This document shows, piece after piece, positions 1-29,935 of a stretch of DNA of 32,000 nucleotides. The notes under the pieces are model-generated. The model had not been told where the DNA came from, did no database searches, and saw only the letters and a program-made list of their open reading frames with translations. Positions within the stretch are counted from its first letter, which is position 1, and each line of letters begins with the position of its first letter. A program made the position numbers and the translations under genes. This stretch comes from Acaryochloris marina S15 (lineage in GTDB: Bacteria; Cyanobacteriota; Cyanobacteriia; Thermosynechococcales; Thermosynechococcaceae), in NCBI RefSeq assembly GCF_018336915.1, contig NZ_CP064923.1, positions 2,520,001 through 2,552,000 on the forward strand, written 5' to 3'.

Positions 1-430
1 GAAATTGGAGCGGGCGTGATTGTTTAGAAAAAGACTGAATGGCAATATTGACTTTGACCTTCCCTGTGGATTTAGCAAAACCGCTGACAGTGAAAGACTG
101 ACGAGATGCCCCCTTGATCAGTTGAAATGCCTGTCCTTTAGCAGGGCCAGACGTACTAGCCACCTTTAGGGCAGCAGGGCCCTGTTTAAAAATTTGAGTA
201 TCCCGTGTAATGGAGATCTTGCCTTTTCCCACCCACTGATGATGCCAATAGTCAGGGACCGTCGTTCCTAGAGTCATCGCACCATTACGTAGGGTGATGG
301 GTTGTCTGCCCTTCTCTTTTGCCGAGGGGGGTGGCGATTTTTGCGCCTGAGAAGATTGAAGTGATATGCAGCCTGCTAGAGTTACTAACCCCATGATCAG
401 CGAGGCTCCTATTGCTCTATGTCGATACAT
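1..430 (-). CDS. putative lipoprotein; 3' part lies beyond the window start
   Basis: Own translation of the minus strand from ATG (430-428) gives MYRHRAIGASLIMGLVTLAGCISLQSSQAQ..., open to base 1. It has a hydrophobic signal peptide ending in lipobox L-A-G-C. It is not in the ORF track because there is no stop inside the window. Confidence 0.5.
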   Translation of the reverse strand, partial: MYRHRAIGASLIMGLVTLAGCISLQSSQAQKSPPPSAKEKGRQPITLRNGAMTLGTTVPDYWHHQWVGKGKISITRDTQIFKQGPAALKVASTSGPAKGQAFQLIKGASRQSFTVSGFAKSTGKVKVNIAIQSFSKQSRPLQF

Positions 431-557
431 GATGGGCTGCCCATTGTATTGCTGTTAGATTGTCACATCTCTAACGGTTGAATTGGCGTAACCCAGATTA
501 CTCAATAAGCACTGTTCGTTAGGGTCGTGGCTTCCGTGGGGGGAGAGGTATGAGGAT

Positions 558-2024
558 GAAAGCGTAATTTTTGTACATTATTCAAGTTTTTAGTGTTACT
601 CTATCTCTTGCAGAGGTTCGAGAGTAACGGTGAGAGATGGACTACGAATTTAGAGTGATTGTGGAGAAAGTTTCGGTTACCACTCAGGAAGTCGTTAAAC
701 GAGACACTCTAAAAATCTATGACATCAAGCAACCAGAATCTATTCTAGATCTAGGATTGCGTCACGAAGAACAAATCTCTCTGCTTTCCAAAGTCCAAAG
801 TGCTCTGTTATCCGAACAATCTACCCTCATCGATACTGGAGTTACGCAGTGCATCAAATGTGGTGGGAAAATAGGCAAGCTTGGTTTTCAACCATCTACA
901 TTCCATGCCGTCTTCAGCGATCATAAACTCCGTATCCAAAAACATCGGTGCAAGAATCCTGAGTGTCGATGGCAAAGTATGCCATCGGTGTTGAGCGTCT
1001 TTGGCACAGATACTCATCCTGACTTAGTAAAACTGCAATGTGAGAATGGTGCCTTGCATAGCTATCGAGAAGCTCAGGATAATATGGAGCGGCTGAATGC
1101 TCAGCGCCGGAGTGTGAATAACCATGTCCAAATCAAAAACGTGACCAATCAAGTCGGTGAGCGTTTATCTCAAGCGAACACTACCCCTCCAGATCAAGAA
1201 GAGTTACCCACCCCGGCAGCAGAACTCATTGCTCAAGTCGATGGGGGTCATATTCCTACCAAAGATAAAGACAAGCGCAGTTTTGAAGCCTTATCTGGCA
1301 TCGTTTATCGTCCTAGTGCCATTGAAGTAGTTGATAAACATCATCGCCAAATTACGGAAAAGACTTGTGTTGTTTCCGCCTTAGAGGATGAGTTGCAAAC
1401 CATCAAGACCTATCTGCATCATGCGGCACTTAAACAAGGGATGACAGAAGAGACACAGGTCACTGCCTTGGCCGATGGTGCTAGCAACTGCTGGTCAGTC
1501 ATCTCAGTTCTTGAGCCTCATTGCAAAGCATTAGAGCTGATCTTGGACTGGTTTCATATCGGCAAGAAATTCCGAAATGTCAGCAATGCACTGGGTGAAA
1601 CCTTTGCAGAATCCCTCGATAGTGCGAAGGGGAGTTTATGGCATGGAAAAGTAGATGATGCTCTGCAGAAGATTGCCATGCTTCGAGACAACATTTCAGA
1701 TGAGAAGAAGCAAACAAAGCTCAAAGGCTTATACGATTACTTAAAGAATAACAGTGAATATCTTGTCAATTATGACGAGCGAGATAAAGCGGGGCTAGCT
1801 TATACCAGTCAAGTTGCAGAATCTCATATTGACACCCTCATTAATGCTCGCCATAAAAAGAAGCAGAAGATGCAATGGACTCGGGTAGGTGCCCATAATG
1901 TCTTGCAAATCAGGGCGAGTATGATCAGTAATGAATGGAGTGATAATTGGCTAGATTTAGTTCTTCCTGAAGAAGAAAAAGCTGCTTGAGAATTAGGCTT
2001 TTAATGTAGGATATTTACGCTTAC
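558..2024 (+). mobile_element. IS copy 1 (1,467 bp; ISKra4-like, family tentative)
   Basis: Boundaries come from a three-way comparison of the copies. Identity starts at GAAAGCGTAATTTTTGTACATTA and ends at TAATGTAGGATATTTACGCTTAC. Imperfect terminal IRs match at about 18 of 23 positions (GWAAGCGTAA...TACATTA). Confidence 0.85.
637..1989 (+). CDS. IS transposase, 450 aa (zinc-finger CxxC...C...C region plus DDE-type core; ISKra4-like tentative)
   Basis: ORF track. The protein is identical to the ORFs at 7882-9234 and 10066-11418. It has a Cys-rich CIKCGG...CKNPEC segment and an LDWFH motif also present in the transposase at 5415-6806. Confidence 0.9.
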   Translation: MDYEFRVIVEKVSVTTQEVVKRDTLKIYDIKQPESILDLGLRHEEQISLLSKVQSALLSEQSTLIDTGVTQCIKCGGKIGKLGFQPSTFHAVFSDHKLRIQKHRCKNPECRWQSMPSVLSVFGTDTHPDLVKLQCENGALHSYREAQDNMERLNAQRRSVNNHVQIKNVTNQVGERLSQANTTPPDQEELPTPAAELIAQVDGGHIPTKDKDKRSFEALSGIVYRPSAIEVVDKHHRQITEKTCVVSALEDELQTIKTYLHHAALKQGMTEETQVTALADGASNCWSVISVLEPHCKALELILDWFHIGKKFRNVSNALGETFAESLDSAKGSLWHGKVDDALQKIAMLRDNISDEKKQTKLKGLYDYLKNNSEYLVNYDERDKAGLAYTSQVAESHIDTLINARHKKKQKMQWTRVGAHNVLQIRASMISNEWSDNWLDLVLPEEEKAA

Positions 2025-2025
2025 T

Positions 2026-3231
2026 CGTCAACATGGTTGGTGCTTTGATCAGAAGGGACAGTGCGTCAAGAACCCGATGCTGGCTGATCCGACTGAGCAG
2101 GCAGTCGCTTACTGCAATGTTCGATCTCATGTAACTACCTATCCGACCCAGGTTGAACAAGGGTTGCTTTGGATTTGGCCAGATCATAATGCCCAAGCCT
2201 TTACAGACTGTCAGCAGAAACAACCCGCAACCCTGCCTGAACCTGGTTCAAAGTGGCATAAGGCTGATTGGCACATGATAGAGGTTCCCATAGGCTACAC
2301 CGTTTCGATTGAAAACAGCTTTGACCCTGTACATGCTCAATTTCTGCATGAAGGAATCAGCGGTTTTTCACCCGCGAACGCGATTCCAATGCAAGGTTTC
2401 AAACTCGTAGACGAGCTATCGGCAGAGGATGGTTTTGTTCTTAGTCATAAAGGATATAACACCTTTAATCGAGAGATGGAGGCAACTCGAACATTCCGTC
2501 CCCCTTGTGCCAACATCACCCAGTACAACTTGCCAATGGCTGGTGTCCAAACCTTTCAACTCTATTTTGTCCCGACAGCACCAGGATATTGTCGATATAT
2601 TATGAAGTTCGTGATGGACTTAGATTTTCCGGCTCGTCCTTTTAGTTTGATGCCGTGGATGAACAAAAAAATGCTAGAGTTGCTACCCGAATATGTGCAG
2701 ATTGGACTACAACATTTGGGGCTTTACAAACTCAATGATCAGGATATTACAGCTATGTATGCCCAAGAACAGAATGAGGCTGTTCTCGATACAGGGCGTA
2801 GACGTACTCCCTTCCTCCCCTCTCCTGCGGATCAGGGAACTTTGACTTTTAAAAGCTGGCTGAATAGATTTGGAAATGGTGGTCCTGAACCCAATTCTCT
2901 CTACGCAGAAGGAGTGGAAAGCCGAAGCAATGAGCAACTCTATGACCGCTGGCATCGCCATACTAAACTTTGTCCTCACTGTTGCCGTTCTATAGAGTGG
3001 ATTGCAAAAACTCAGAGAGTTTGCCATCGTTTGACGACTGTGACGGTAATTCTGGGGGGAATCATGCTTTTGCTACCACTATCAGTCCGACTCAGTCTGG
3101 GATGCTTCGCAATTGCAATTCTAAGTCTTCTAGGACATCAGGGACTCACAAAATTGCACTCGCATTTCATGAGTAGTATTCCGCGGCAAGGGATGCCAAA
3201 CCTTCAACTTTGGCCCCATGGAGGTACTTGA
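2026..3231 (+). pseudogene. Rieske/PaO-family oxygenase, C-terminal fragment (starts inside the Rieske CxxH motif)
   Basis: The frame of ORF 2077-3231 is open back to the IS right end and reads RQHGWCFDQKGQCVKNPMLADP... It has a PaO/Tic55-like C-terminal CxxC (LCPHCC) followed by hydrophobic helices. The N-terminal half of the gene is at 9314-9597 on the opposite strand. Confidence 0.85.
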
Positions 3232-3321
3232 ACAGAAACTTATTGTTTTGGGTAAACACGATAAGTTTGCAAGTTGGGTTTCAAGCATTTATGAGCACGT
3301 GTCAGATCTGATAACAAGCTT

Positions 3322-3498
3322 CTAGTACTCCAAGGTGTAAGTTAGCCCACCATTAAAAGCGACAACAGGTGGGAAATTTGCACCACTCTTCAATGCAGCC
3401 GCATAGATTGCAACAGAATCTTCATTTAAACCTGTGTGACAGTGCAGCCCTCCATCACGCCGAAGGGTAGAAATCTCTAGACAAATAATAGAAGACAT
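3322..3498 (-). pseudogene. possible ParB-like N-terminal domain remnant (58 codons)
   Basis: Own translation gives MSSIICLEISTLRRDGGLHCHTGLNEDSVAIYAAALKSGANFPPVVAFNGGLTYTLEY*. The pattern resembles the ParB/Srx fold N-terminus (..V..YA.AL..G..FPPV.VF.) but stops before the expected DGxHR. It is below the ORF-track length cutoff. Confidence 0.25.
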
Positions 3499-3553
3499 CT
3501 GGCGACCTCACCTTGCATAAGGCTGATTTTACCAACTTTCTTTCTACTCCCAA

Positions 3554-4174
3554 TCACCCCCAAACCCTACTCACCCGCTCCCGATCCAACCACACCCCGA
3601 TCATCTCCTCAATCCGCTCAATCGTTTCCCCTGGCCGCAGACTCAACACCTGCAACACATCGAATGTGTCTTCTAATTCCAAGGCGCACTCAAAGCAGAA
3701 CTCGGGTGTTTCAAACGAAATTCTGATGAACGGTATACCGCTGCCCTCGATGGTGATCCAATATTTCCCTGAACTGCTTTGGGAAACCGTCAGATACTCA
3801 AGCTGACCCTTTTGCTTGGTCTGCTGAACCAAGTTCCTTTGACGCTTCTCCAGTGCGTGAAATTTGGACTCAAAAGCTCTCGACACTCTGGGGGGTCGGA
3901 CCCTTCCTGGTGTTTGCCGAGCTGAATACCCTCGCTGCGTTCTCCGAGTATCGGTGGGTTCACTGCGGTCGTATCTGGGGGTGGGTTCAGTGGTGCGATC
4001 ATCATCTTCAGGCTGTGGAGTCGCCTTGCGCTTCACTGGCAGATCGTCTTTCCGGTCGATGGTCGGGAATGATGTCTTGTCTGGGTATGCGGGGGGTGCT
4101 TCGGTGTTTGTCGAGGGTTTCACCGGGAGGTCGGCTGGTAGCTTGGGCTTCAGGGAAATGAGTTGAGGGGGCAT
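3554..4174 (-). CDS. hypothetical protein: Pro/Thr/Arg-rich N-terminal half plus a conserved ~65-aa C-terminal domain
   Basis: Longest ORF in the region. The C-terminal part (KYWITIEGSGIPFIRISFETPEFCFECALELEDTFDVLQVLSLRPGETIERIEEMIGVWL) has a diverged second copy at 28693-28891. Confidence 0.55.
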   Translation of the reverse strand: MPPQLISLKPKLPADLPVKPSTNTEAPPAYPDKTSFPTIDRKDDLPVKRKATPQPEDDDRTTEPTPRYDRSEPTDTRRTQRGYSARQTPGRVRPPRVSRAFESKFHALEKRQRNLVQQTKQKGQLEYLTVSQSSSGKYWITIEGSGIPFIRISFETPEFCFECALELEDTFDVLQVLSLRPGETIERIEEMIGVWLDRERVSRVWG

Positions 4175-4270
4175 TGCAGATATCCTGTGCTAAGGCTGGT
4201 TCAGTTTAGCCTTCGGGAATATGGTCTGGGGGATTTCTGGGAAAAGCTTAATTTCTTAGATGTCAGCTAT

Positions 4271-4543
4271 TTATGAAGCTGTTTGAATAGGGACGCTTGG
4301 GGGTGCAAATAAGAACACTCCATTTCCTACCTCTTTACATTGACCAGATAGAGAATGGGCACTGCCCGCTAAATAGTCACTTATTCTCTGGGATGAAGAA
4401 GGTGGCAAGTCAGCCAAATTTACCAATAGCAGTTGTCCCTTTTTCAAGGATTGTACATCCGCTTCTGCTTCAGTAAATGAACTAGGATGAGACAGACGAA
4501 TTTCACAGGGAGTCTTCCCGTGCAATGGAACTAGGTTATTCAT
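4271..4543 (-). CDS. SepF-like (DUF552) core-domain protein, 90 aa
   Basis: By eye it aligns along its length to the SepF C-terminal domain: RLSHPSSFTEAEADVQSLKKGQLLLVNLADL...SQRISDYLAGSAHSLSGQCKEVGNGVFLFAPPSV. The long N-terminal region of canonical SepF is absent. Confidence 0.7.
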   Translation of the reverse strand: MNNLVPLHGKTPCEIRLSHPSSFTEAEADVQSLKKGQLLLVNLADLPPSSSQRISDYLAGSAHSLSGQCKEVGNGVFLFAPPSVPIQTAS

Positions 4544-4844
4544 AGGGCTATCTAATGCTCAGAGGTTCTGTTCATTGTGACACAACGAAATTTACTTTTA
4601 TTCGGCGGGCAAATAACTCAGAGTTTTGATCAGGGATGGTTTTCATACTCCCACTCAATTCTGACCACCAGATTCACCTATAATCCAATAACTGCAATAC
4701 TTGCAGATAATTCAGTAAAAAAACACTCTATATTTTGATTCAGTTTTGATTTTGCTGACATCTACCCCGCACTCACCGGAAAATCAGAAATTGTAGTAGG
4801 CAAAATTGTTCTCAATTCAGTTCAGTCAAGGATATACAGTATTT

Positions 4845-5243
4845 ATGGCTAAAAAAACAGCCGCCGCAAAGAAAAAAACAGCCGCAAAGAAAAAAGATAT
4901 TCAACCCCTAGTCGGGAAAGAACTACTCAAAAAGCTCAAGGATTTATCTCACCTCTCGAAGCGGGATAAAGCGAAAGAGTGTGGCTATGTAGTCGGCAAG
5001 CAAGTTAACCTAAGTGGTTTTATGAATGCCATTTTGGAAGCCAAGGGCATTTCACTAGATGGTGATGCCAATAACGACGGTAGAGGTCGAGAGGCAACCT
5101 ATCGAGTCAAAGTTCATCAGAATGGGCAGGTGGTCATCGGGTCTACCTACACCGAAAAAATGGGTTTACAGACGGGTGATGAGTTTGAAATCAAGGTCGG
5201 CTATAAGCACATTCATCTAACTCAATTGACGGAAGATAAATAA
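4845..5243 (+). CDS. cyAbrB-type transcriptional regulator (C-terminal AbrB/SpoVT domain) with a Lys/Ala-rich N-terminus
   Basis: The C-terminus GQVVIGSTYTEKMGLQTGDEFEIKVGYKHIHL is an AbrB swapped-hairpin motif. I chose the ATG at 4845 (MAKKTAAAKKKTAAKKK) over the TTG at 4806 given in the ORF track. Confidence 0.8.
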   Translation: MAKKTAAAKKKTAAKKKDIQPLVGKELLKKLKDLSHLSKRDKAKECGYVVGKQVNLSGFMNAILEAKGISLDGDANNDGRGREATYRVKVHQNGQVVIGSTYTEKMGLQTGDEFEIKVGYKHIHLTQLTEDK

Positions 5244-5406
5244 GAGTATTTACGCTTTTACCCAAAATTAATTCGATTTCTCGCGAGAATCTAACAACAC
5301 TCATATTCTGCTATCTCACATCCTGAAAGAGATTGACAAGTTCCTTATAAATAGCTTTGGGCTTAAGCATAAGTCAGCAAACTGAATACCTGGAATACAT
5401 CACATC

Positions 5407-6892
5407 GGGCGTATTTAGCGGATCGGGGATGCCTTAGTTTTCGGAATGGTCACCTCTGGGAATAAGGAGTCAAACCGTTCATTGACCCAGGCAATTCTCA
5501 AGATCAGTAAATGGTTGAAACCATCCTCACTCCAGCGCATGCCAACTCCCTTAAAGCGCTGCTGAATCAACCACTTGCATGCACTTTCAACCATTCCTGA
5601 CCCGAGAGGAATCTGTTGCTGTTCAAAGTGCCGATAACGGATGTGGTTATGATGGCGTTGGAAATAAGCCTGCACCTGGAGCAACGTTGAAAAAGACTTT
5701 CCCGTTAACAGTTGTGAGTGAATCAATATCGTCAAGGACCGTAATACAAGTAGGTGTTGCCCGTGTCGCAATTGGTGTCGCCAGTGCCGGAACCAGGCTT
5801 GGGCTTGAGCAGAGCGGGCATCTCCAAACATCGCTTTAGTTGCTCGTGCCAGATGGCCTGCTGAATGAAAAAAGTCGAGGACTGCCACAGCACAATGAGA
5901 GAACAAGGTGCGATAGACTCGCCAGAAGCCTCGTCCCCCATCACTGAGCCAGATGACTTTTGGAGCAGATTCAAAGTCTTGTTTGTGAGCTTCGAGTTGA
6001 AGTAAAGGGATGAACTGGTCGATATCGCCCAATACTGCCACCAGTCTTCGACGCAGTAATTGGGGGACCTCCTTTTTAGCTCGGGTAACCCGTGTTCCCA
6101 GGCGAGCTAAGATGGCGACTTTGACTTCTCGCCACTGGATTTTTCCCTTGGGTGAGTTCGGGGTGGGGCGAAAGGGGACCATCACACCATCGGCGGCAAT
6201 GGCCAAAGGTAGAGCAGATAACATCTCTGAAATCGCTTCACAAGGGGCCTGAGTCCCTGATGATTGAGCGTTGAGTTGAGCTTCTAATTCCTGCTGAGCT
6301 TTGTTACCCACGGATTGCACCCAGTTCCACAAACTGGATGGACTCACGGATAGACCACTCCACTGACCCAGCATCCAACTGGCCAGTTCATAGGGCATGA
6401 ACAGACTCAACAAGCAGCCCAGACGCACCAGTTCTTCGCTGCTGTGCTGATAGGGGGCAATCCCAATGGCTTGATCCAGGGGAGTCAACAGACTGCCTGG
6501 ACATCCTTTGGGACAACGGCCCACCCGTCGCTTTCAAGAGATAGTGCCTACCAGTGTCTGCATCTGACGAGATTCCCATCCCTTCGAATGTAAGCGGGTT
6601 CCGCAGGTAGTACATACAGGCCATACAAATACTGCTTTCGCGCGCCTTGAGAGTTCATCCTCCAGAAGACAGCGAGCTAGAAACAAGCCCATTTGCAGAA
6701 CGATATAAACCATCTGACTCAGGCTGGTTGATACTTTGAGTGCTTCAGTTTGTTCTAGAAATTCGTCATGGGCTAGCACGGTTAGCAATTGCGATGGTAG
6801 GGTCATGATAGTTTTTTGGTTCGGGTACAGGATCTATTGTCCTTGACCCGTTTTTCTTTGAGCCATGCATCCCCGATCCTTTGCTTACGCCC
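5407..6892 (-). mobile_element. IS (1,486 bp), related to the 1,467-bp IS; ISKra4-like tentative
   Basis: Terminal IRs are GGGCGTATTTAGCGGATCGGGGATGC (5407-5432) and the reverse complement of 6867-6892, GGGCGTAAGCAAAGGATCGGGGATGC (21 of 26 match). It is flanked by the perfect 9-bp direct repeat CATCACATC (5398-5406 and 6893-6901). Confidence 0.85.
5415..6806 (-). pseudogene. IS transposase interrupted by one in-frame TGA (6536-6534)
   Basis: ORFs 6534-6806 and 5415-6524 are in the same frame. The junction reads ...TLVGTIS-TGA-KRRVGRCPKGC, so a Trp codon (TGG) is the likely ancestor. There is a zinc-finger CTTCG...CPKGC region and an LDFFH motif. Confidence 0.8.
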
Positions 6893-6981
6893 CATCACAT
6901 CTCTATGAAGATTGCTTTTATTCTCAAAGGGAAAAATGGGAATCGGGTAGCATGAACATCACTAATATTGGAAATGACTGC

Positions 6982-7254
6982 ATGTCAATTTACGTTGGTA
7001 ACCTCTCTTATGATGTTACAGAGCAAGATCTAAATACCGCTTTTGCTGAATATGGGACCGTAAAAAGTGCCAAGCTTCCCACTGACCGTGAAACAGGGCG
7101 CAAGCGTGGATTTGCCTTTGTCGAAATGGGTGATGAAGCTGAGGAAGCTAAAGCTATTGAAGAACTAGATGGTGCTGAATGGATGGGACGTACTCTCAAA
7201 GTGAATCAAGCAAAGCCCCGTGAGAACAGAGGTGGTGGTGGTAACCGCTGGTAG
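6982..7254 (+). CDS. RRM-type RNA-binding protein (cyanobacterial Rbp family), 90 aa
   Basis: MSIYVGNLSYDV (RNP2), KRGFAFVEM (RNP1) and a Gly-rich tail RGGGGNRW. I chose the ATG at 6982; the ORF-track start at 6865 lies inside the IS terminal repeat. Confidence 0.9.
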   Translation: MSIYVGNLSYDVTEQDLNTAFAEYGTVKSAKLPTDRETGRKRGFAFVEMGDEAEEAKAIEELDGAEWMGRTLKVNQAKPRENRGGGGNRW

Positions 7255-7280
7255 AGCTAATTTGAATTAAGGGGGTTGGA

Positions 7281-7313
7281 ACTCATAGCTCATTTATTTT
7301 TTGAGCTATGAGT
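7281..7313 (+). terminator. hairpin downstream of the rbp gene
   Basis: ACTCATAGCTC (7281-7291) pairs with GAGCTATGAGT (7303-7313) across a T-rich 11-nt loop, 27 nt after the stop codon. There is no clear 3' U-tract. Confidence 0.4.
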
Positions 7314-7548
7314 CTGCCTGATTAAAGTTCTTCTCTTCACTTAAATGACACGAATAAGGCAACCCTTCCAGCCCAGTTGGTTTTTCATGTTAATGGTATT
7401 AGTAAAGACTTGGGTGTTATTCCCGTAAACCGTCTTACTCCCTTGATTACAGGATAGCTTGGCTTTATTCAAGCCAGTTGAATAGTAACCTTTCCAGGCT
7501 CTATCAACACTTTGGCCAAATCCCAACCAGCAATTCTCATTTTAGAAT

Positions 7549-7846
7549 TCAAGTAGAGTTAGCCCCTTCGGTGAGCATGAAATCAAACAACGCATCCCAA
7601 CTAGCGAACCAAAAATAGCGAGTCAGGGTAAATAAGTCACGGAAAAAGTCCTTTCTAGTTACCAGCAGTTCTCGCAGTTGCCCATAGGTGCCGCCAAGCA
7701 ACTCTAAAATTGTATGCATCAAAAATGCTAGCAAGTTGAGCGTCACCAGTAATTCAGCCAGATGCTCTTGGCCATGGCCAAAGTTGTGTTCCAAATGATA
7801 GCCCTTGGTTTTGAGCACATTATTGTTTTCATTCTCGACCTTCCAC
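7549..7846 (-). pseudogene. C-terminal fragment of an unclassified DDE transposase, truncated by IS copy 2
   Basis: The frame is open up to the IS boundary and reads WKVENENNNVLKTKGYHLEHNFGHGQEHLAELLVTLNLLAFLMHTILEL... From memory, the GYxLEHNFGHG...LNLLAF tail occurs at the C-terminus of cyanobacterial IS transposases. The family is not resolved. Confidence 0.5.
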
Positions 7847-9313
7847 GTAAGCGTAAATATCCTACATTAAAAGCCTAATTCTCAAGCAGCTTTTTCTTCT
7901 TCAGGAAGAACTAAATCTAGCCAATTATCACTCCATTCATTACTGATCATACTCGCCCTGATTTGCAAGACATTATGGGCACCTACCCGAGTCCATTGCA
8001 TCTTCTGCTTCTTTTTATGGCGAGCATTAATGAGGGTGTCAATATGAGATTCTGCAACTTGACTGGTATAAGCTAGCCCCGCTTTATCTCGCTCGTCATA
8101 ATTGACAAGATATTCACTGTTATTCTTTAAGTAATCGTATAAGCCTTTGAGCTTTGTTTGCTTCTTCTCATCTGAAATGTTGTCTCGAAGCATGGCAATC
8201 TTCTGCAGAGCATCATCTACTTTTCCATGCCATAAACTCCCCTTCGCACTATCGAGGGATTCTGCAAAGGTTTCACCCAGTGCATTGCTGACATTTCGGA
8301 ATTTCTTGCCGATATGAAACCAGTCCAAGATCAGCTCTAATGCTTTGCAATGAGGCTCAAGAACTGAGATGACTGACCAGCAGTTGCTAGCACCATCGGC
8401 CAAGGCAGTGACCTGTGTCTCTTCTGTCATCCCTTGTTTAAGTGCCGCATGATGCAGATAGGTCTTGATGGTTTGCAACTCATCCTCTAAGGCGGAAACA
8501 ACACAAGTCTTTTCCGTAATTTGGCGATGATGTTTATCAACTACTTCAATGGCACTAGGACGATAAACGATGCCAGATAAGGCTTCAAAACTGCGCTTGT
8601 CTTTATCTTTGGTAGGAATATGACCCCCATCGACTTGAGCAATGAGTTCTGCTGCCGGGGTGGGTAACTCTTCTTGATCTGGAGGGGTAGTGTTCGCTTG
8701 AGATAAACGCTCACCGACTTGATTGGTCACGTTTTTGATTTGGACATGGTTATTCACACTCCGGCGCTGAGCATTCAGCCGCTCCATATTATCCTGAGCT
8801 TCTCGATAGCTATGCAAGGCACCATTCTCACATTGCAGTTTTACTAAGTCAGGATGAGTATCTGTGCCAAAGACGCTCAACACCGATGGCATACTTTGCC
8901 ATCGACACTCAGGATTCTTGCACCGATGTTTTTGGATACGGAGTTTATGATCGCTGAAGACGGCATGGAATGTAGATGGTTGAAAACCAAGCTTGCCTAT
9001 TTTCCCACCACATTTGATGCACTGCGTAACTCCAGTATCGATGAGGGTAGATTGTTCGGATAACAGAGCACTTTGGACTTTGGAAAGCAGAGAGATTTGT
9101 TCTTCGTGACGCAATCCTAGATCTAGAATAGATTCTGGTTGCTTGATGTCATAGATTTTTAGAGTGTCTCGTTTAACGACTTCCTGAGTGGTAACCGAAA
9201 CTTTCTCCACAATCACTCTAAATTCGTAGTCCATCTCTCACCGTTACTCTCGAACCTCTGCAAGAGATAGAGTAACACTAAAAACTTGAATAATGTACAA
9301 AAATTACGCTTTC
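7847..9313 (-). mobile_element. IS copy 2 (1,467 bp)
   Basis: Same ends as copy 1 in reverse complement (GTAAGCGTAAATATCCTAC at 7847; ...AAATTACGCTTTC ending at 9313). Confidence 0.85.
7882..9234 (-). CDS. IS transposase, 450 aa (identical to 637-1989)
   Basis: The ORF-track protein is identical to that of copies 1 and 3. Confidence 0.9.
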   Translation of the reverse strand: MDYEFRVIVEKVSVTTQEVVKRDTLKIYDIKQPESILDLGLRHEEQISLLSKVQSALLSEQSTLIDTGVTQCIKCGGKIGKLGFQPSTFHAVFSDHKLRIQKHRCKNPECRWQSMPSVLSVFGTDTHPDLVKLQCENGALHSYREAQDNMERLNAQRRSVNNHVQIKNVTNQVGERLSQANTTPPDQEELPTPAAELIAQVDGGHIPTKDKDKRSFEALSGIVYRPSAIEVVDKHHRQITEKTCVVSALEDELQTIKTYLHHAALKQGMTEETQVTALADGASNCWSVISVLEPHCKALELILDWFHIGKKFRNVSNALGETFAESLDSAKGSLWHGKVDDALQKIAMLRDNISDEKKQTKLKGLYDYLKNNSEYLVNYDERDKAGLAYTSQVAESHIDTLINARHKKKQKMQWTRVGAHNVLQIRASMISNEWSDNWLDLVLPEEEKAA

Positions 9314-9597
9314 TGTTGACGACAGACAAGGGTGCCATCCGTTTGAATCTTGCCTAGGGATAACCGCGTCAATTTATGGGGACAAACATCATCCATTGCT
9401 ATCCACTGACCCTGATGTTGCCAGATCACCAAATTTTTACCGAGCAAGGTGATGGGGGTGGGGCAAGAGTTATCCAAATAGTTTAAGGGACTAACCGGAT
9501 ACCACTGCTTCAGCCAATTTAAGGGTTGTCTTTCAGCGGTGGATTGTGATTCTAAACCACTTAGATTTTCTGACTTGAGGTCAATATCTGTCGTCAT
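9314..9597 (-). pseudogene. Rieske/PaO-family oxygenase, N-terminal fragment (ends inside the Rieske CxxH motif)
   Basis: MTTDID...WIAMDDVCPHKLTRLSLGKIQTDGTLVCRQ runs into the IS left end. The ORF-track end (9304) includes 3 codons and a stop supplied by the IS. Joined to 2026-3231 it restores CPH-x17-CRQH. Confidence 0.85.
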
Positions 9598-9891
9598 AAG
9601 GCACCATTGTTCTAGTTTTGCTGAGAACGTGCTTGAAAACTATGTAGGTAACGTGGCTCTATTACCTCAGATGGACGAAGACAATATCTAATGACAGATT
9701 TCTAGTTGGTTAATGCTAATCCATCCTCGCTCAAAAGATATACCACTAATCAAACGTCAGCAACTTTCCCAACTTTTATGCATTATCTAGAAAATGTGCG
9801 TGAAGACTCCAACTATACGAATGTTAGTTGGAGATGTGTATAGCACTCCATTCCAAGCATATTGTTATGCCGAACATGCTAGTGTAATAGT

Positions 9892-10030
9892 ATGATTGTA
9901 CTAAAGTTTAAAGCAAGAACCAGTCAGCATCAAACAAGTGCGATTGATGAAGCCATCAGGACAGCTCAATTCATTCGTAATAAGTGCTTGCGCTTTTGGA
10001 TGGATAACAAAGGTACAGGCAAATACGACT
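9892..10030 (+). pseudogene. tnpB: TnpB (IS200/IS605-family OrfB) N-terminal 46 codons, truncated by IS copy 3
   Basis: Own translation gives MIVLKFKARTSQHQTSAIDEAIRTAQFIRNKCLRFWMDNKGTGKYD, the characteristic TnpB N-terminus. A 9-bp-stem hairpin upstream (CTCCAACTA 9807-9815 / TAGTTGGAG 9825-9833) is compatible with an IS605-type left end. Confidence 0.65.
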
Positions 10031-11497
10031 GTAAGCGTAAATATCCTACATTAAAAGCCTAATTCTCAAGCAGCTTTTTCTTCTTCAGGAAGAACTAAAT
10101 CTAGCCAATTATCACTCCATTCATTACTGATCATACTCGCCCTGATTTGCAAGACATTATGGGCACCTACCCGAGTCCATTGCATCTTCTGCTTCTTTTT
10201 ATGGCGAGCATTAATGAGGGTGTCAATATGAGATTCTGCAACTTGACTGGTATAAGCTAGCCCCGCTTTATCTCGCTCGTCATAATTGACAAGATATTCA
10301 CTGTTATTCTTTAAGTAATCGTATAAGCCTTTGAGCTTTGTTTGCTTCTTCTCATCTGAAATGTTGTCTCGAAGCATGGCAATCTTCTGCAGAGCATCAT
10401 CTACTTTTCCATGCCATAAACTCCCCTTCGCACTATCGAGGGATTCTGCAAAGGTTTCACCCAGTGCATTGCTGACATTTCGGAATTTCTTGCCGATATG
10501 AAACCAGTCCAAGATCAGCTCTAATGCTTTGCAATGAGGCTCAAGAACTGAGATGACTGACCAGCAGTTGCTAGCACCATCGGCCAAGGCAGTGACCTGT
10601 GTCTCTTCTGTCATCCCTTGTTTAAGTGCCGCATGATGCAGATAGGTCTTGATGGTTTGCAACTCATCCTCTAAGGCGGAAACAACACAAGTCTTTTCCG
10701 TAATTTGGCGATGATGTTTATCAACTACTTCAATGGCACTAGGACGATAAACGATGCCAGATAAGGCTTCAAAACTGCGCTTGTCTTTATCTTTGGTAGG
10801 AATATGACCCCCATCGACTTGAGCAATGAGTTCTGCTGCCGGGGTGGGTAACTCTTCTTGATCTGGAGGGGTAGTGTTCGCTTGAGATAAACGCTCACCG
10901 ACTTGATTGGTCACGTTTTTGATTTGGACATGGTTATTCACACTCCGGCGCTGAGCATTCAGCCGCTCCATATTATCCTGAGCTTCTCGATAGCTATGCA
11001 AGGCACCATTCTCACATTGCAGTTTTACTAAGTCAGGATGAGTATCTGTGCCAAAGACGCTCAACACCGATGGCATACTTTGCCATCGACACTCAGGATT
11101 CTTGCACCGATGTTTTTGGATACGGAGTTTATGATCGCTGAAGACGGCATGGAATGTAGATGGTTGAAAACCAAGCTTGCCTATTTTCCCACCACATTTG
11201 ATGCACTGCGTAACTCCAGTATCGATGAGGGTAGATTGTTCGGATAACAGAGCACTTTGGACTTTGGAAAGCAGAGAGATTTGTTCTTCGTGACGCAATC
11301 CTAGATCTAGAATAGATTCTGGTTGCTTGATGTCATAGATTTTTAGAGTGTCTCGTTTAACGACTTCCTGAGTGGTAACCGAAACTTTCTCCACAATCAC
11401 TCTAAATTCGTAGTCCATCTCTCACCGTTACTCTCGAACCTCTGCAAGAGATAGAGTAACACTAAAAACTTGAATAATGTACAAAAATTACGCTTTC
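10031..11497 (-). mobile_element. IS copy 3 (1,467 bp)
   Basis: Same ends as copies 1 and 2. Confidence 0.85.
10066..11418 (-). CDS. IS transposase, 450 aa (identical to 637-1989)
   Basis: The ORF-track protein is identical to that of copies 1 and 2. Confidence 0.9.
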   Translation of the reverse strand: MDYEFRVIVEKVSVTTQEVVKRDTLKIYDIKQPESILDLGLRHEEQISLLSKVQSALLSEQSTLIDTGVTQCIKCGGKIGKLGFQPSTFHAVFSDHKLRIQKHRCKNPECRWQSMPSVLSVFGTDTHPDLVKLQCENGALHSYREAQDNMERLNAQRRSVNNHVQIKNVTNQVGERLSQANTTPPDQEELPTPAAELIAQVDGGHIPTKDKDKRSFEALSGIVYRPSAIEVVDKHHRQITEKTCVVSALEDELQTIKTYLHHAALKQGMTEETQVTALADGASNCWSVISVLEPHCKALELILDWFHIGKKFRNVSNALGETFAESLDSAKGSLWHGKVDDALQKIAMLRDNISDEKKQTKLKGLYDYLKNNSEYLVNYDERDKAGLAYTSQVAESHIDTLINARHKKKQKMQWTRVGAHNVLQIRASMISNEWSDNWLDLVLPEEEKAA

Positions 11498-11590
11498 ATT
11501 GCTGTCTCCATTCCTCTGACTAATGCACAGAAGTTTAGAGGTTGGCCTGGTCTGGTTAGGGGGAATGACCTGTCGAAATGATGGTTAGGG

Positions 11591-11759
11591 GGTGGCGAAG
11601 TTTATTGCCATTTGACCGGCGAAGTTATTACCACAGAGGTGGCGAAGTTTATTGCCATTTGACCGGCGAAGATAACTTCCAAAGGGGTGGCGAAGTTGCT
11701 GCTATTTGACCGGCGAGGTTGCCCTCCAAAGGGGTGGCGAAGTTTGTGAGAATATGCAG
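11591..11759. repeat. tandem direct repeats: 47-48-bp period built from seven 23-24-bp GGCGA(A/G)G-headed units
   Basis: GGCGAAG/GGCGAGG starts at 11594, 11618, 11641, 11665, 11689, 11712 and 11736 (spacings 24, 23, 24, 24, 23, 24). Units alternate between ...TTTATTGCCATTTGACC and ...CCAAAGGGGT types. Confidence 0.85.
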
Positions 11760-12083
11760 CTATCTTTTGAATCTCATGTGATAGACAATAGAGAACCACC
11801 GACCAATCATCCTTCGCTAATTCAAGAAATGATTGACTTGGGGTTGGTCAAGACTCAAAGGAGCCGGGCTCACTGCGATCTCTCCCGATTTCAAAGAGAA
11901 TGTTGGTTTGAGTATTGTTCTGACTTGGTGTTGCCATCCATCTATACCTGGGAATTGTGGCACGAGAAATTCATCACCAGTCAAAAGGAATCGACTACCC
12001 TGATCGCACCTGGGGAAGACTTTGAGCATTTTAACTATGTATGGGTACAAGAGATGGAAATCCAGACAGTGCAACCAGGCTAA
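11754..12083 (+). CDS. hypothetical protein
   Basis: ORF track (11706-12083). The ATG at 11754 is preferred because the upstream part runs through the tandem repeats. No recognisable motif. Confidence 0.3.
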   Translation: MQLSFESHVIDNREPPTNHPSLIQEMIDLGLVKTQRSRAHCDLSRFQRECWFEYCSDLVLPSIYTWELWHEKFITSQKESTTLIAPGEDFEHFNYVWVQEMEIQTVQPG

Positions 12084-12167
12084 ATTTAGATGGTTAAGGT
12101 TCTGATTGCTTCATGGCACTATAAGATGTTGCATTAACTATGGCGAAGACCAAAACGTTGTTTGAAG

Positions 12168-12548
12168 ATGATAGAAATCAGATGGCTGGAGAAGGATATC
12201 AGTATGACTTATGTATGTGAATTAGGCCCCGGCCACAGCATGTACCTTGACAACCAAGGTGCTCAGACCTTAGTCACTTTAATGATGGGTACTCCTGGAC
12301 AACAACAACAGTCTAGTAATAGTTTTGGAACAGGCTGTTGGACAGCTCCACCTGAAATTTATCGAACGCCCCAAGAATTCGTCATTAAAGTAACCACTAC
12401 TCACGGTGAGCAGTTTATCCAAGTGCAGGGCAGCAGCATGATTAGTATGACGAGCATCCCATCTTTGCAGAAGTCTCAACAGATACAAATAAACCTAAGT
12501 GAGGCGATCCCCTCTATTTCTGGTAGTGTCGCAAAAATAGAGTGTTGA
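12168..12548 (+). CDS. hypothetical protein whose 3' end is supplied by the IS6 left IR (probably truncated)
   Basis: ORF track (12162-12548), first ATG at 12168. The last 9 codons (SGSVAKIEC*) lie inside IS6 copy A, which starts at 12522. Confidence 0.3.
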   Translation: MIEIRWLEKDISMTYVCELGPGHSMYLDNQGAQTLVTLMMGTPGQQQQSSNSFGTGCWTAPPEIYRTPQEFVIKVTTTHGEQFIQVQGSSMISMTSIPSLQKSQQIQINLSEAIPSISGSVAKIEC

Positions 12549-13365
12549 CCGATAGACAGTGGTAAATTGAGAGGCTCTGTTCCTTTTCTCTCCCATCAAT
12601 GAAAACTACTGATCTGTTCAAATGGCGTCATTACCAATCTGAGATCATCCTGCTCAATGTTCGTTGGTATTGCCGTTATCCCCTCAGCTATAGAAATTTA
12701 GAAGAGATGATGATAGAGAGGGGCTTAGAGGTGGATCACAGCACCATCAATCGGTGGGTTCTCAAATATTCTCCTGAGCTAGACAAGCGCTGTCGTCGGC
12801 ATCTCAAGCCTACCAATGATTCTTGGAGAGTTGATGAAACTTACATCAAAATCCGTAAAAAGTGGCGATACCTATATCGAGCCGTAGACTCTGATGGCTA
12901 CACCCTCGACTTTTTACTCACAGCAAAGCGGGATGCTAAGGCTGCGAAGCGCTTTCTGACTAAAGCACTGAATGCCGTTCATACCCATGAACCTCGGGTG
13001 ATCAATGTGGACAAGAATCCAGCATATCCTCCTGCTGTTGAGCAGTTACAGGAAGAGGAACGTATCCCTGAAGGAGTAAAAGTACGGCAGGTAAAATACC
13101 TCAATAATATAGTGGAGCAAGATCATCGTGGCATTAAAAGTCTCGTGAACCCTGGTATGGGATTTGGATCGTTTAACTCGGCTAGACGAACCTTAAAAGG
13201 GTATGAAGCGATGAACATGATCCGTAAAGGTCAGATCAAAAATGTGGGCAAAGATGATGTGGTAGGACAGATCTCTTTTATCAATCAAATCTTCGGATTA
13301 GCTGCATAGTCTCGGATAGAAATCTGAGGAGTTTTGTAACTGGAAGCATTTTTTGCGACACAACC
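12522..13365 (+). mobile_element. IS6-family IS, copy A (844 bp, boundary +/-1)
   Basis: Boundaries come from comparison with copy B. IRs are GGTAGTGTCGCAAAAA (left) and GGTTGTGTCGCAAAAA (right, reverse complement), resembling the IS26-type GGCACTGTTGCAAA end. Confidence 0.9.
12599..13309 (+). CDS. IS6-family transposase, 236 aa
   Basis: MKTTDLFKWRHYQSEIILLNVRWYCRYPLSYRNLEEMMIERGLEVDHSTINRWV...WRVDETYIKI...YLYRAVD is a typical IS6/IS26-like sequence. Confidence 0.95.
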   Translation: MKTTDLFKWRHYQSEIILLNVRWYCRYPLSYRNLEEMMIERGLEVDHSTINRWVLKYSPELDKRCRRHLKPTNDSWRVDETYIKIRKKWRYLYRAVDSDGYTLDFLLTAKRDAKAAKRFLTKALNAVHTHEPRVINVDKNPAYPPAVEQLQEEERIPEGVKVRQVKYLNNIVEQDHRGIKSLVNPGMGFGSFNSARRTLKGYEAMNMIRKGQIKNVGKDDVVGQISFINQIFGLAA

Positions 13366-16300
13366 ATCATTACTGAACGAGATATCTTGCAATTACAAAC
13401 CTTAGGGATTCCTACGACCACTACATTCGTTGAGCAGGTCATGAGTAGCCCACTATTTTTTGTCGATCCTAGAGATAGCCTGTGGTCGGTTTATCAACAA
13501 ATGCATCACCATCACATCCGCCGCATGGTGGTGGTTGATTCAAATAATAGTAATCATCTCTTGGGGATTGTCAATCAAGATGATCTGCTCCATTTATTCG
13601 ACCCATTGGCGATGAATGAGACCCCGCAAGTACAGGTTGAGCCGTTTAAACAAGAAAAAATCAACCTATTGCAGGACTGGAATCATGGCTTGGAACAGCA
13701 ACAACAGTTGCTAGAGGATATTATCCTTGCCAAGGATCGAGCCCAGCTATTGGAACAACAGAATCTTCGACTTCAACAGGAAATTAAAGACAAGGAGCAA
13801 GCAGAAGCAGAATTAAACCAACAAATTGAGCAGGAAAGGCTACTACGACTTATTACCCAAGACATTCATAGCACCAGAGATATTAAGGAACTGCAGTCTC
13901 TTGTTGTCAATCAAGTCCGTCAGACGGTTAGGGCAGATCGAGCTTTGCTGTTTCGCTTAATGCCAGGAGGGGGAGGCATCATTCTTGAGGAATCTGTTCT
14001 CCCTAGCTATCCTGCTATGGAAGAGCTAGATGGTGAAGATCAAGATTTCCCACCTGAATGCTATGAGTTTTATCTCCAAAGAAAACCGCGAATCGTTTTG
14101 GACTTACACCAAGACGACTGGAGTCATTGCTTAAAACAATTCTGGATGCCAGCCCAGGTCAAATCTAAGATTGTGGCCCCCATTGTGCAATCCCAAAATC
14201 ATGGCCACAAAAGGTTATGGGGGTTATTAGTGGTTCATGCCTGTGACTATCCTCGGGTATGGCAGCCAGATGAAGCTTTATTCCTGCAGCAAGTGGCCAA
14301 TCAATTTGCAGTTGCGATTCAACAAGCTGACTTAGCTATACAGTTACAGCAAGAATTAGTAGAACGGCAACAGAGCGATCTAGCTCTAGCTCAAGAGTTA
14401 CAACGATCGCAGCTTTTAGGTAAAATCACTCAGAAAATCCATGAAAGTCTGGATAGCCTTCATGTTTTTGAAACGGCAGTAGTAGAAATTCGTCGCGCTC
14501 TTAAAGCGAGTCGATGCAACATTTTTGTCTATAGTGCTGTGGATGACCCTCATTTCTCTTTGATGTTCCATGATTATGAAGCAGATTATCCAGACCAAGG
14601 ACCAGAGATTGTCCGCTTAGCCGATCATGAGTATGTGCGGCAACTGGCAAACCAACCAGAAGCAATTGCCAGCCCCCAGGCTCAATCCGATCCATTATTG
14701 GTAAGTTGCTTGCCAATGGTTGAAGCCCTTTCCATTCAATCTATGGTTAGTATTCGCACGTCTTACCAAGGCAATGTGAATGGAGCGATTACGATTAGCC
14801 AATGCGATCGCATCCGGGATTGGACCCCCGAGGAATTAGACTTACTCACTGCAGTCGCCACAGAAGTGGGCATTGCCCTAGCCCACGCCAACTTACTCAC
14901 CCAAGAACTCCACCAGCGAGAACAACTCTCTCAAAAGAACCAACAACTACATACTGAAATCGAAGAGAAGAAACAAACACAGACCCTTCTCAAACTCGTG
15001 ATGGATTCCATTCCTCAAGCCATTTTTTGGAAGGACAGAACCTCTCGCTATTTAGGGTGTAATCGTGCTTTTGCCAAAGAAGCGGGTTTTAACACTGCAG
15101 AAGAGATTATTGGCAAAACTGACCAAGAGATGCCTTGGCCACCGGAAGAAGCAGAATGGTATCGGCTTTCTGATCTAGAAGTCATAAACTCCAACCAACC
15201 CCAATTCCATGTCCTTGAAACTCAGCTACGCGCCGACGGGACAAAAACGTGGATGGACACCAATAAAGTCCCTCTTCATAACCCTAAAGGAAAAGTGGTA
15301 GGGGTTTTGGGAACTGCCGAAGATATTACAGAGCGGATTCAGGTCGAAGCCGAGTTGCAGCAACAACTCCAACGAGAACAGGTCTTATCCGAAATTACCA
15401 ACCAAATTCGTCAGAGCCTCGATCTGGACATCCTTTTAAAATCTGCAGTAGAACAGCTCTGTGCTTTATTCCAAGTCAGTCGGTGTTCCTTTTTTACTTA
15501 CACTGACCAGCCCAACCCTCAACTCGTACTCTCTGCCCAAGCCTATTCACAGCCAGAATGGGAAGCTGCTCTTTCTCATCCCCTCCTCACCTCAGATCAT
15601 CCTCGTCTTTTAAAGTTACTTGCGAATGATCGAGTTCGCCCTGTGTCTGATATTTGGCAAGAGCCTAGTCTGGCGACATCAGAAAAAGAAAGCCTGTCTT
15701 CTACCCTAAGAATTAGAGCCTATCTCAGCGTTAGAACAGCCTTTAAAAATCATCCAAATGGCATTATATTCCTCGACCAATGCGAGCGCAGACGGAATTG
15801 GACCAAAGATGAAGTCTCTTTATTGGGAACAGTTGCAGCCCAGCTAGGGATTGCTGTTGCCCATGCTGATTTATTAGCGGATGAACAGAAGCAGCGTCAG
15901 GACTTAAAACTTCAGAACCGCCGCCTGCAGGAAGAGATCGCCCATCGAAATCAGGCCGAGAAAGCATTAGCAAAGCAACTCGAAAAAGCTGAACTGTTAG
16001 AGAAAATTGTTCAACAAATTCGGCAAAGTCTTGAACCACAGTTAATTTTCCGCACTGCCGTGACTCAGGTACGACAATTACTAGCTGCAGATCGCGTCTG
16101 CATCTATCGATTTATAGAGGATACGGACCACGCCCAAGGCATGATGGTCGCAGAAGAAGTACTCCCAGAGTTTCCATCTGCCCTGACAGCCCATGTGCGA
16201 GACCGATGCTTTGGTGACCAATATGCAAATCGTTATCAGAGCGGTCGCTTCCAGGCTGTTGCCGATATTCATGAAGCTGGCCTTAGTGATTGCCATATTG

Positions 16301-24948: not shown

Positions 24949-25055
24949 CGACCCAGCTTTTAACTCAGTCTTGCTCGCCAGCAGCGGTTTCAATCAAGCA
25001 CCCTTCGTCAAGGATTGGACGATCTTGAGAGATTCGTCAATATGGCCTTGGAAGT

Positions 25056-25899: not shown

Positions 25900-26149
25900 T
25901 GAATTTGAATTGGCTCAAAGCAAATCGACTCAAACCGAATCACTGATAACACCCGATCTTGCTCATTCGCTAACTTCACCAAAGCCACAATCAGCACTTT
26001 TGACCATAAATCTCGGACTCAAGCATGGCCTGTTGTTGACCATAAACGGGCTTCCCTTAAATAGTCAAAAATCCAACTAGCTAGCCCCATTGGGATGAGT
26101 TGATGTTGGTATGTGCAACAATCAATACACCGCAAACACTTGACGAACT

Positions 26150-29926: not shown

Positions 29927-29935
29927 AAAGTCTAA

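Follow-up and report, generated by a model that had tools for sequence, protein, structure and literature searches.

In the 32,000-nucleotide stretch of Acaryochloris marina S15 DNA that we analysed (the window), a Rieske/PaO oxygenase gene is cut inside its CxxH motif, and its two halves adjoin different, inverted and 100% identical copies of an ISKra4-family insertion sequence that we call IS-A. The 9-bp sequence at the cut is present once at each junction and once in related DNA that lacks the insertion, and the segment between the two IS copies is inverted. We infer that this structure may have arisen in one transposase-driven step, rather than by insertion followed by host recombination. 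The features on which the argument turns are as follows.

558-2024 (+): IS-A copy 1, with transposase gene 637-1989 (450 aa); identical to copies 2 and 3
2025-2033 (+): target-site duplication TCGTCAACA, at the right end of IS-A copy 1
2026-3231 (+): Rieske/PaO C-terminal fragment, R93-Q94-H95 to the stop codon; ExxxDxxHxxxxH iron motif, PaO domain, CxxC and hydrophobic C-terminus
7847-9313 (-): IS-A copy 2, with transposase gene 7882-9234
9314-9322 (-): target-site duplication, reading TGTTGACGA on the + strand, at the left end of IS-A copy 2
9314-9597 (-): Rieske/PaO N-terminal fragment, M1 to Q94 and the first 2 nt of the codon for His95; C72-x-H74 and C92
9598-9786 (-): upstream DNA native to the Rieske gene; contigs L002, L003 and L004 are collinear here
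10031-11497 (-): IS-A copy 3, with transposase gene 10066-11418; its left and right flanks differ

The split Rieske/PaO oxygenase gene

Joining 9597-9314(-) to 2034-3231(+), with one copy of the 9-mer kept, restored an uninterrupted open frame of 1482 nt encoding 493 aa. The rejoined protein has the Rieske motif C72-P-H74-x17-C92-R-Q-H95, which conforms to the [2Fe-2S] pattern CxH-x(15-17)-CxxH and is broken at His95 in the window as assembled. The break lies inside the codon of this last Rieske ligand (CA, then T), and the N-terminal open reading frame (9304-9597) runs on for three codons into the IS, ending ...CRQQKA and a stop. The rejoined protein also matched the Pfam Rieske (4.7e-21) and PaO (PF08417; 4.2e-10) families. 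It carries the mononuclear iron motif ExxxDxxHxxxxH at residue 188 (ENSFDPVHAQFLH), the C-terminal CxxC (CPHC) at 408, and hydrophobic stretches at 433-466 of the kind expected for a membrane anchor. Both domains, the CxH-x17-CxxH, ExxxDxxHxxxxH and CxxC motifs and the hydrophobic C-terminus are shared with PaO/Tic55/LLS1-type Rieske non-heme iron oxygenases.

An intact ortholog (P0001; 493 aa, 99% identical) is contiguous across the break between CRQ and H and reads ...TDGTLVCRQHGWCFDQKG..., which bears out the proposal in a preliminary description of this DNA that the two fragments are halves of one gene. The rejoined protein was 99% identical to intact genes from two other sequencing runs and 84% identical to the A. 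marina MBIC11017 chromosomal gene at 157185-158675. The split gene is probably the ortholog of MBIC11017 AM1_0159, a locus tag that we assigned by position only. In contrast to the MBIC11017 chromosomal gene, the gene here is inactivated and lies in DNA that is plasmid-like, judging from its neighbours. It is dead, a pseudogene in either orientation of the inverted segment. This PaO-type Rieske oxygenase (probably the AM1_0159 ortholog) is thus dispensable in one A. marina-group strain, in agreement with the earlier exclusion of AM1_0159, a chlorophyll d synthase candidate, as non-core (Miller et al. 2022, PMC8949462).

A duplicated 9-bp target and three IS-A copies

The sequence TCGTCAACA occurs only twice on both strands of the whole window, at 2025-2033 and, as its reverse complement, at 9314-9322, exactly where the preliminary description had placed it. 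With six possible comparisons between left and right flanks of different copies, the probability of such a match by chance is about 2e-5. Logan contig L002 contains the corresponding empty site: its positions 733-1205 align with window 9786-9314 on the N-terminal side (99.4% identity) and 1197-2482 with window 2025-3310 on the C-terminal side (99.7% nucleotide identity), so that the two alignments overlap by exactly 9 nt, and the site reads GTCTGTCGTCAACATGGTTGG, with a single 9-mer. The gene is uninterrupted and the 9-mer likewise present in single copy in L003.

Each of the three IS-A copies is 1467 bp long, and the three are 100% identical; copy 3, absent from the preliminary description, lies 717 bp from copy 2. 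The ends are imperfect terminal inverted repeats (GAAAGCGTAATTTTTGTACATTA and GTAAGCGTAAATATCCTACATTA, matching at 17/23 positions). The transposase scored 269.6 bits against the NCBIfam model for ISKra4 transposases, NF033572, above its curated cutoff of 205 bits, with residues 29-434 aligned to model positions 15-422 of 422. Both the length and the terminal inverted repeats agree with the ISKra4 family (~1.4-1.6 kb). The ISKra4 group duplicates 9 bp of its target (ISfinder value), as seen here, where TCGTCAACA is present once in the empty site and twice in the window, once per junction. These comparisons support the reading that a 9-bp target inside the CxxH motif was duplicated by one ISKra4-family element. 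IS-A thus resembles the family as described (Guerillot et al. 2014, PMC3942029; NF033572) in its single DDE transposase of ~450 aa, its length of ~1.47 kb, its terminal inverted repeats, its 9-bp target duplication and its occurrence in cyanobacteria, where the family is common.

Origin of the inverted structure

The flank topology and the position of the gene halves on opposite strands make the present structure equal to an inversion of 2025-7846, as had been proposed. The segment holds the SepF-like gene, abrB-like gene, second IS and rbp that were attributed to it, together with a hypothetical gene.

2025-7846: inverted segment, 5822 bp, relative to the inferred ancestral order
3311-3541: 231-bp segment, missing at the same position in L002, L003 and L004
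3554-4174 (-): hypothetical gene, 206 aa; the Rieske gene's conserved downstream neighbour in plasmid CP071724.1 of Acaryochloris 'Moss Beach' (89% amino acid identity)
4271-4543 (-): SepF-like gene (PF04472, 1.7e-18)
4845-5243 (+): AbrB-like regulator gene (PF14250, 1.7e-32); likely ATG at 4845, within the ORF listed from 4806
5407-6892 (-): IS-B, ISKra4-family element, 1486 bp; inserted simply, between direct 9-bp repeats (CATCACATC; 5398-5406, 6893-6901)
6982-7254 (+): Rbp, RRM-type RNA-binding protein gene; the listed ORF 6865-7254 begins inside IS-B, and the likely start Met is at 6982
7549-7846 (-): transposase C-terminal fragment, cut short by the right end of IS-A copy 2; its homologs are annotated as 'transposase' or 'ISNCY family transposase'

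The IS-B transposase gene has an in-frame TGA at codon 91, and an empty site for IS-B is found in Moss Beach pMB06 (L006).

Among the six flanks of the three IS-A copies, the only matching pair is IS1-right with IS2-left. The reciprocal flanks, IS1-left and IS2-right, do not match (TATGAGGAT versus GTGGAAGGT), 1-557 is not what the transposase gene truncated at 7549-7846 has lost, and no direct repeat surrounds any single IS-A copy in the window (0/3). Two of the copies adjoin truncated elements that lack their other halves. This pattern is what intramolecular transposition 'in trans' would leave. The ancestor would have carried an intact Rieske/PaO gene on the minus strand, followed by a plasmid module of the hypothetical, SepF, AbrB and Rbp genes, with an IS-A copy already in place at a distance of 5.8 kb, where its neighbours would have been position 557 and the ISNCY-like transposase fragment. 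That copy would have attacked the 9-bp target TCGTCAACA in the C92-R93-Q94-H95 codons of the same molecule, and this single event would have copied IS-A to give two identical inverted copies, turned round the 5.8 kb between them, set the 9-bp duplication once beside each IS in inverted orientation, and moved the two gene halves to opposite strands. Exactly such a product of intramolecular transposition in trans, formed in one step, is described by He et al. 2015 (PMC4471558). In IS orientation, the old flanks would be IS1-left and IS2-right, and the new 9-mer stands at IS1-right and IS2-left, the arrangement that this route predicts.

A second case points in the same direction. Moss Beach plasmid pMB02 carries two copies, X and Y, of an 87%-identical IS, inverted to each other and 8.2 kb apart; the X-right and Y-left flanks are both AACAGCGAT, and joining them restored an open 271-aa IS21 istA-like frame. 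A reciprocal flank match was looked for in this pair and was not found. In a survey of the IS-A clade, in which the ends of seven distant members were set from inverted repeats only and some sequences came from metagenome assemblies, no direct repeat of at least 7 nt was found at the IS ends (0/14 sites), whereas IS-B had perfect 9-bp direct repeats at 4/4 sites on the same plasmids. IS-B is an imperfect control: its transposase is only ~24% identical to that of IS-A, and none of its copies form close inverted pairs. Nor does the in-trans model give an obvious explanation for L017, where a lone IS copy lies between intact genes and has no repeat.

The preliminary description had considered insertion, then homologous recombination, to be the simplest history. 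In this two-step route, IS-A entered the Rieske gene by simple insertion, with a direct 9-bp duplication and inverted relative to a copy that already lay 5.8 kb off. RecA-dependent recombination between the two identical 1467-bp copies then flipped 2025-7846, a segment that may be flipping in the population even now. The structure agrees fully with this route, in that a single duplication is shared out, one 9-mer standing on an inner IS flank and the other on an outer flank of the second copy. IS copies commonly recombine to give inversions, 1.47-kb inverted repeats of 100% identity are good recombination substrates, and simple insertions of ISKra4-family elements with 9-bp direct repeats do occur, as IS-B illustrates. 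The end product is identical to that of a classical RecA-dependent inversion between inverted IS copies, with the segment flipped and the flanks exchanged. However, two simple insertions that recombine should leave both flank pairs matching, and here one pair only does; at least one further event is therefore needed, both in the window and in the Moss Beach case, and the direct-repeat intermediate that the route requires was seen at none of the 14 IS-A-clade sites. Thus, the 9-bp duplication, the inverted copies and the inversion of the earlier account stand, whereas its claim to be the simplest is not supported, given the unmatched flanks, the third identical copy, the lack of direct repeats and the one-step alternative. 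We regard the two-step route as a realistic possibility that is nonetheless more likely wrong than right.

The products of the two routes are identical, and sequence alone does not separate them. We slightly favour one-step, IS26-like intramolecular transposition in trans, to which we would give about an even chance, because direct repeats are absent throughout the clade but regularly present at IS-B, a pattern that this route explains better. Against it, the way in which ISKra4-family elements transpose has, to our knowledge, not been demonstrated, and IS256, a better-studied relative of ISKra4, uses a copy-out/paste-in mechanism that gives simple insertions.

Two further readings were considered, and the flanks of copy 3 bear on the first.

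9787-10030 (+): left end and first 46 codons of a putative TnpB-type (IS200/IS605-like) element, so assigned from its N-terminal sequence; cut short by the right end of IS-A copy 3; a 'transposase' locus of Moss Beach pMB06 is 97.5% identical
11498-11760: fragment like the sequence beside IS21-family istA genes, with 47-nt tandem repeats; adjoins the left end of IS-A copy 3

Additional IS-A copies (copy 3, or some outside the window) could have driven successive inversions, deletions or replicon fusions, with the IS1/IS2 exchange last. Four of the six flanks are unmatched, three of them being truncated mobile-element fragments, and the order of neighbouring blocks differs from that in Moss Beach CP071724.1, where window 25900-26731 and 11843-12507 are adjacent. 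Such a history is improbable as an account of the split gene and is more an extension than a rival, since one IS1/IS2 exchange rejoins the Rieske halves whatever came before; the other pairings of the six flanks give no match. The assembly might instead have joined the wrong unique segments at the three identical 1.47-kb repeats, the true molecule being a simple insertion or a mixture of isomers. Repeats that exceed short-read inserts permit alternative joins, and six junctions allow other pairings, but in both isomers the same IS interrupts the gene at the same 9-bp site, which leaves the core finding intact, and the long-read Moss Beach assembly has the same kind of structure for a related IS. 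We consider an artefact very unlikely.

Implications and comparison with known transposition systems

The gene disruption and inversion are real but ordinary, a textbook IS-associated rearrangement in an IS-rich Acaryochloris replicon. Two independent inversions with split duplications, together with the 14 clade sites without direct repeats, provide a testable lead on the transposition of a poorly studied IS family and on how Acaryochloris plasmids get rearranged. Tentatively, the IS-A clade may follow an IS26-like pathway in which transposition is coupled to inversion, deletion or replicon fusion, so that a direct repeat would hardly ever be left around one copy. If true, this would be the first mechanistic inference for the ISKra4 family and would name a specific driver of rapid Acaryochloris plasmid reshuffling.

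In lacking direct repeats, the IS-A clade differs from the distantly related IS-B of its own family. For the sister ISAzba1 group, Guerillot et al. 2014 (PMC3942029) suggested that element-borne recombinases may resolve cointegrates. The closest parallels to the structure described here are the in-trans products of IS26 (IS6 family) and Tn4401 (Tn3 family) (He et al. 2015, PMC4471558). Unlike these elements, IS-A belongs to the ISKra4 family (Mutator superfamily, p-MULT4), for which a replicative mechanism is not established, and duplicates 9 bp where they duplicate 8 or 5. As with IS26 and Tn4401, identical inverted copies bracket an inverted segment, each copy has the target duplication once, in inverted orientation, the break leaves two inverted halves of a gene or element, and many copies are without direct repeats.

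A Rieske/PaO oxygenase gene split between inverted IS copies

The preliminary description had a Rieske/PaO oxygenase gene divided between two identical, inverted copies of an insertion sequence, and our analysis bore this out. Copies 1 and 2 of the element, here called IS-A (ISKra4 family), are 1467 bp each and 100% identical. We found a third copy with 100% identity, where only the first two had been named. All three encode an intact transposase of 450 aa (NCBIfam ISKra4 model, 269.6 bits against a cutoff of 205) and end in imperfect 23-bp terminal inverted repeats.

Flanks of the three IS-A copies in the window, read in the orientation of the IS
558-2024, plus strand, IS1: left flank TATGAGGAT, right flank TCGTCAACA
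7847-9313, minus strand, IS2: left flank TCGTCAACA, right flank GTGGAAGGT
10031-11497, minus strand, IS3: left flank GACAGCAAT, right flank AGTCGTATT

The only matching pair among these flanks is IS1-right and IS2-left. As the preliminary description had it, the 9-mer TCGTCAACA abuts the right end of IS1 (2025-2033) and its reverse complement abuts the left end of IS2 (9314-9322); counting both strands, these are its only two occurrences in the window. The left flank of IS1 is unique intergenic DNA. The right flank of IS2 is a truncated transposase gene (7549-7846), for which we dropped the label 'IS4-like' because the annotations of its homologs read 'transposase' or 'ISNCY family transposase'. 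To the right of IS3 is a TnpB-type element, of which the first 46 codons are present and whose insertion point is 189 bp upstream of the Rieske start. To the left of IS3 is a fragment that contains 47-nt tandem repeats and looks like the ends of elements of the IS21 family. Three such repeats lie at 11606-11744 in this fragment, which is similar to DNA beside istA genes of the IS21 family on plasmids from Moss Beach; the repeats probably represent the multi-repeat end of an IS21-type element that IS-A copy 3 has cut. Window positions 1-557 and 7274-7846 had no DNA matches in the plasmid collection, and metagenomes scanned for the Rieske/IS junction and the left end of the IS gave no matches.

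Rejoining the two halves (9597-9314 on the minus strand with 2025-3231) and removing one 9-mer gave a frame of 1482 nt that encodes 493 aa without interruption, in which the Rieske motif predicted earlier is restored as C72-P-H74-x17-C92-R-Q-H95. The break falls within the codon for His95, the last Rieske ligand. The rejoined protein matched the Pfam Rieske and PaO domains and has the mononuclear-iron motif ENSFDPVHAQFLH, a CPHC motif and a hydrophobic C terminus. A database search recovered an intact ortholog (P0001; 493 aa, 99% identical) encoded on two comparison contigs, L002 and L003, from unrelated sequencing runs. The residues on either side of the break, taken to be contiguous in the preliminary description, are so in this ortholog and in all of the more distant ones, which read ...LVCRQHGWCFD... 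unbroken.

Contig L002 also provided the empty site. Its positions 733-1205 correspond to window 9786-9314 and its positions 1197-2482 to window 2025-3310, so that exactly 9 nt of the contig are shared by the two alignments, and TCGTCAACA is present there in a single copy. Together, these results are direct empty-site proof of a 9-bp target duplication in the Rieske gene; they confirm the split-gene observation and exclude chance. The rejoined gene differs from L002 at 5 nt, four of them non-synonymous, with no frameshifts or stops, and the disruption is therefore recent.

Relatives, genomic setting and an IS6-family pair

The closest relatives are all from Acaryochloris. In A. marina MBIC11017 the gene (NC_009925.1:157185-158675) is 84% identical and, from its position, is probably AM1_0159, a Rieske-oxygenase candidate for chlorophyll d synthase that was excluded as lying outside the A. 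marina core genome (Miller et al. 2022, PMC8949462). If this positional assignment is right, an oxygenase copy killed by an IS agrees with that exclusion. Plasmid CP071724.1 of Acaryochloris sp. 'Moss Beach' has a frameshifted gene of 99% identity, called as a 299-aa product (L004 10001-10900). The polishing coverage of this assembly is only ~7x, and given this low depth the frameshifts may be sequencing errors rather than marks of a true pseudogene.

A hypothetical gene downstream (3554-4174) is kept beside the Rieske gene in Moss Beach. The block of hypothetical, SepF, AbrB and Rbp genes is also found on several Acaryochloris plasmids, close to genes for replication and partition, so the window is probably plasmid DNA from a near relative of Moss Beach and S15. 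Many Acaryochloris plasmids carry homologs of the 206-aa hypothetical gene, whose 3' part (3585-3763) has an 87%-identical paralogous stretch at 28718-28896; the intact locus of other strains has sequence similar to this stretch on both sides of the Rieske gene (L002 525-588 and 2483-2536). Just past the Rieske stop lie 231 bp (3311-3541), with a minus-strand 58-aa ORF, that are missing at this place in L002, L003 and L004. A 493-aa ORF at 29936-31417 was ruled out as an intact oxygenase paralog: it encodes an eCIS-core (DUF4157-type) protein, equal in length to the Rieske protein but unconnected with the split gene, and adjoins a polyprenyl-synthetase-like gene (both within 28982-31417, minus strand).

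An inverted pair of 854 nt (12513-13366 and 25055-25908) consists of IS6-family elements of ~844 bp (12522-13365 and 25056-25899). The two are identical, of the IS240 type with a DDE transposase, and bracket 11.7 kb that encode a 1552-aa hybrid sensor kinase, a cytochrome b-like protein, a CP43/IsiA-like chlorophyll-binding protein, a hydrolase and a Crp-family regulator. We rejected a split-duplication signature for this pair, as no pairing of 8-mer flanks matches; it is thus not a clean composite-transposon insertion, and it is not a clean inversion either. An ORF for a zinc-ribbon protein homolog (12162-12548) is cut short by one IS6 copy. In CP071724.1 (L004 13876-15179), blocks homologous to window 25900-26731 and then 11843-12507 are directly adjacent, with only an imperfect 9-nt similarity at their junction. 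In the window each block lies outside one of the two IS6 copies, and their order is reversed.

Possible routes to the inversion

There is ample precedent for IS-bounded inversions in which a gene is split and the target duplication is divided. The preliminary description had explained the present one by a single insertion followed by a single recombination, and this stood only in part. Un-inverting 2025-7846 rebuilt the minus-strand order 'Rieske-N, 9-mer, IS, 9-mer, Rieske-C'. The partner copy is then left without a duplication, with position 557 on one side and the ISNCY-like fragment on the other, so one insertion and one recombination make an incomplete history.

The explanation that we slightly favour is one-step intramolecular transposition, to which we give an even chance of being right. 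A nearby donor copy of IS-A would transpose 'in trans' within the same molecule, and in a single step the IS would be duplicated in inverted orientation and the DNA between would be flipped, each IS keeping one inverted copy of the target duplication. The topology that we derived for this route keeps the old flanks at IS1-left and IS2-right, places the new 9-mer at IS1-right and IS2-left, and matches the one observed. The identical arrangement arises if the inverted copies recombine through RecA after a simple insertion, so that structure alone cannot tell the two routes apart; with the partner copy left without a duplication, we regard this two-step route as plausible, if somewhat doubtful. 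A longer chain of events involving other IS-A copies is improbable.

The one-step and two-step routes share one ancestral order: the Rieske gene was intact on the minus strand, and the hypothetical-SepF-AbrB-Rbp block lay opposite to its present orientation. Synteny with Moss Beach and MBIC11017 does not polarise the orientation, because conservation is limited to the Rieske gene and its hypothetical neighbour, the remaining blocks being permuted. A mis-join of the assembly at the IS-A repeats is very unlikely, and even then the same IS interrupts the same site; the oxygenase gene is non-functional whichever explanation holds.

The IS-A clade and IS-B elsewhere

An IS with 87% identity to IS-A is present on Moss Beach plasmids in four copies, none of which has direct repeats. 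Two of these on pMB02 (CP071719.1, ~62.8-74.0 kb) are inverted and 8.2 kb apart (X and Y; L009 14835-16302 and 24529-25996). Their X-right and Y-left flanks have AACAGCGAT in common as a split inverted duplication, and joining these flanks restored an open 271-aa IS21 istA-like frame. The reciprocal flanks of the pair did not match. We ruled out the Y-right flank as a paralogous istA, which would have implied recombination between IS21 copies, because the flanks have no homology. The pMB02 pair is an independent instance of the same split-duplication rearrangement.

More distant members of the clade (64-84% transposase identity), from genomes and metagenomes, gave seven reproducible sites, and none had direct repeats of at least 7 nt at ends that were inferred from inverted repeats only. 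Across 14 sites (the three window copies and those in L005, L008, L009, L013-L017, L020 and L022), we thus counted no direct repeats and two split inverted pairs. This tally includes sites reproduced in several metagenomes with the IS between apparently intact genes, such as SSF-IS-NusB (L017-L019). The two-step model does not account for the lack of direct repeats in the clade, and the one-step model accounts for it only in part.

By contrast, the distantly related ISKra4-family element IS-B (5407-6892, 1486 bp) separates the AbrB-like gene from the Rbp gene as a clean simple insertion. It has a 9-bp direct repeat, CATCACATC, at 5398-5406 and 6893-6901, and its empty site is found on Moss Beach pMB06. 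The three Moss Beach copies of IS-B also have perfect 9-bp direct repeats, making four of four. With a transposase only ~24% identical to that of IS-A and no nearby inverted pairs among its copies, IS-B is an imperfect control. Although the IS-B transposase frame in the window has an in-frame TGA at codon 91, the Moss Beach plasmids pMB01 and pMB09 carry nearly identical copies flanked by perfect repeats.

ISKra4 elements are part of the Mutator superfamily, and members of the sister ISAzba1 group bear site-specific recombinases that might resolve cointegrates (Guerillot et al. 2014, PMC3942029). One-step intramolecular transposition in trans has been described for IS26 and Tn4401 (He et al. 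2015, PMC4471558). We tentatively suggest that the IS-A clade of ISKra4 may transpose through a similar, IS26-like pathway that couples transposition to rearrangement, which would be of moderate interest if true.
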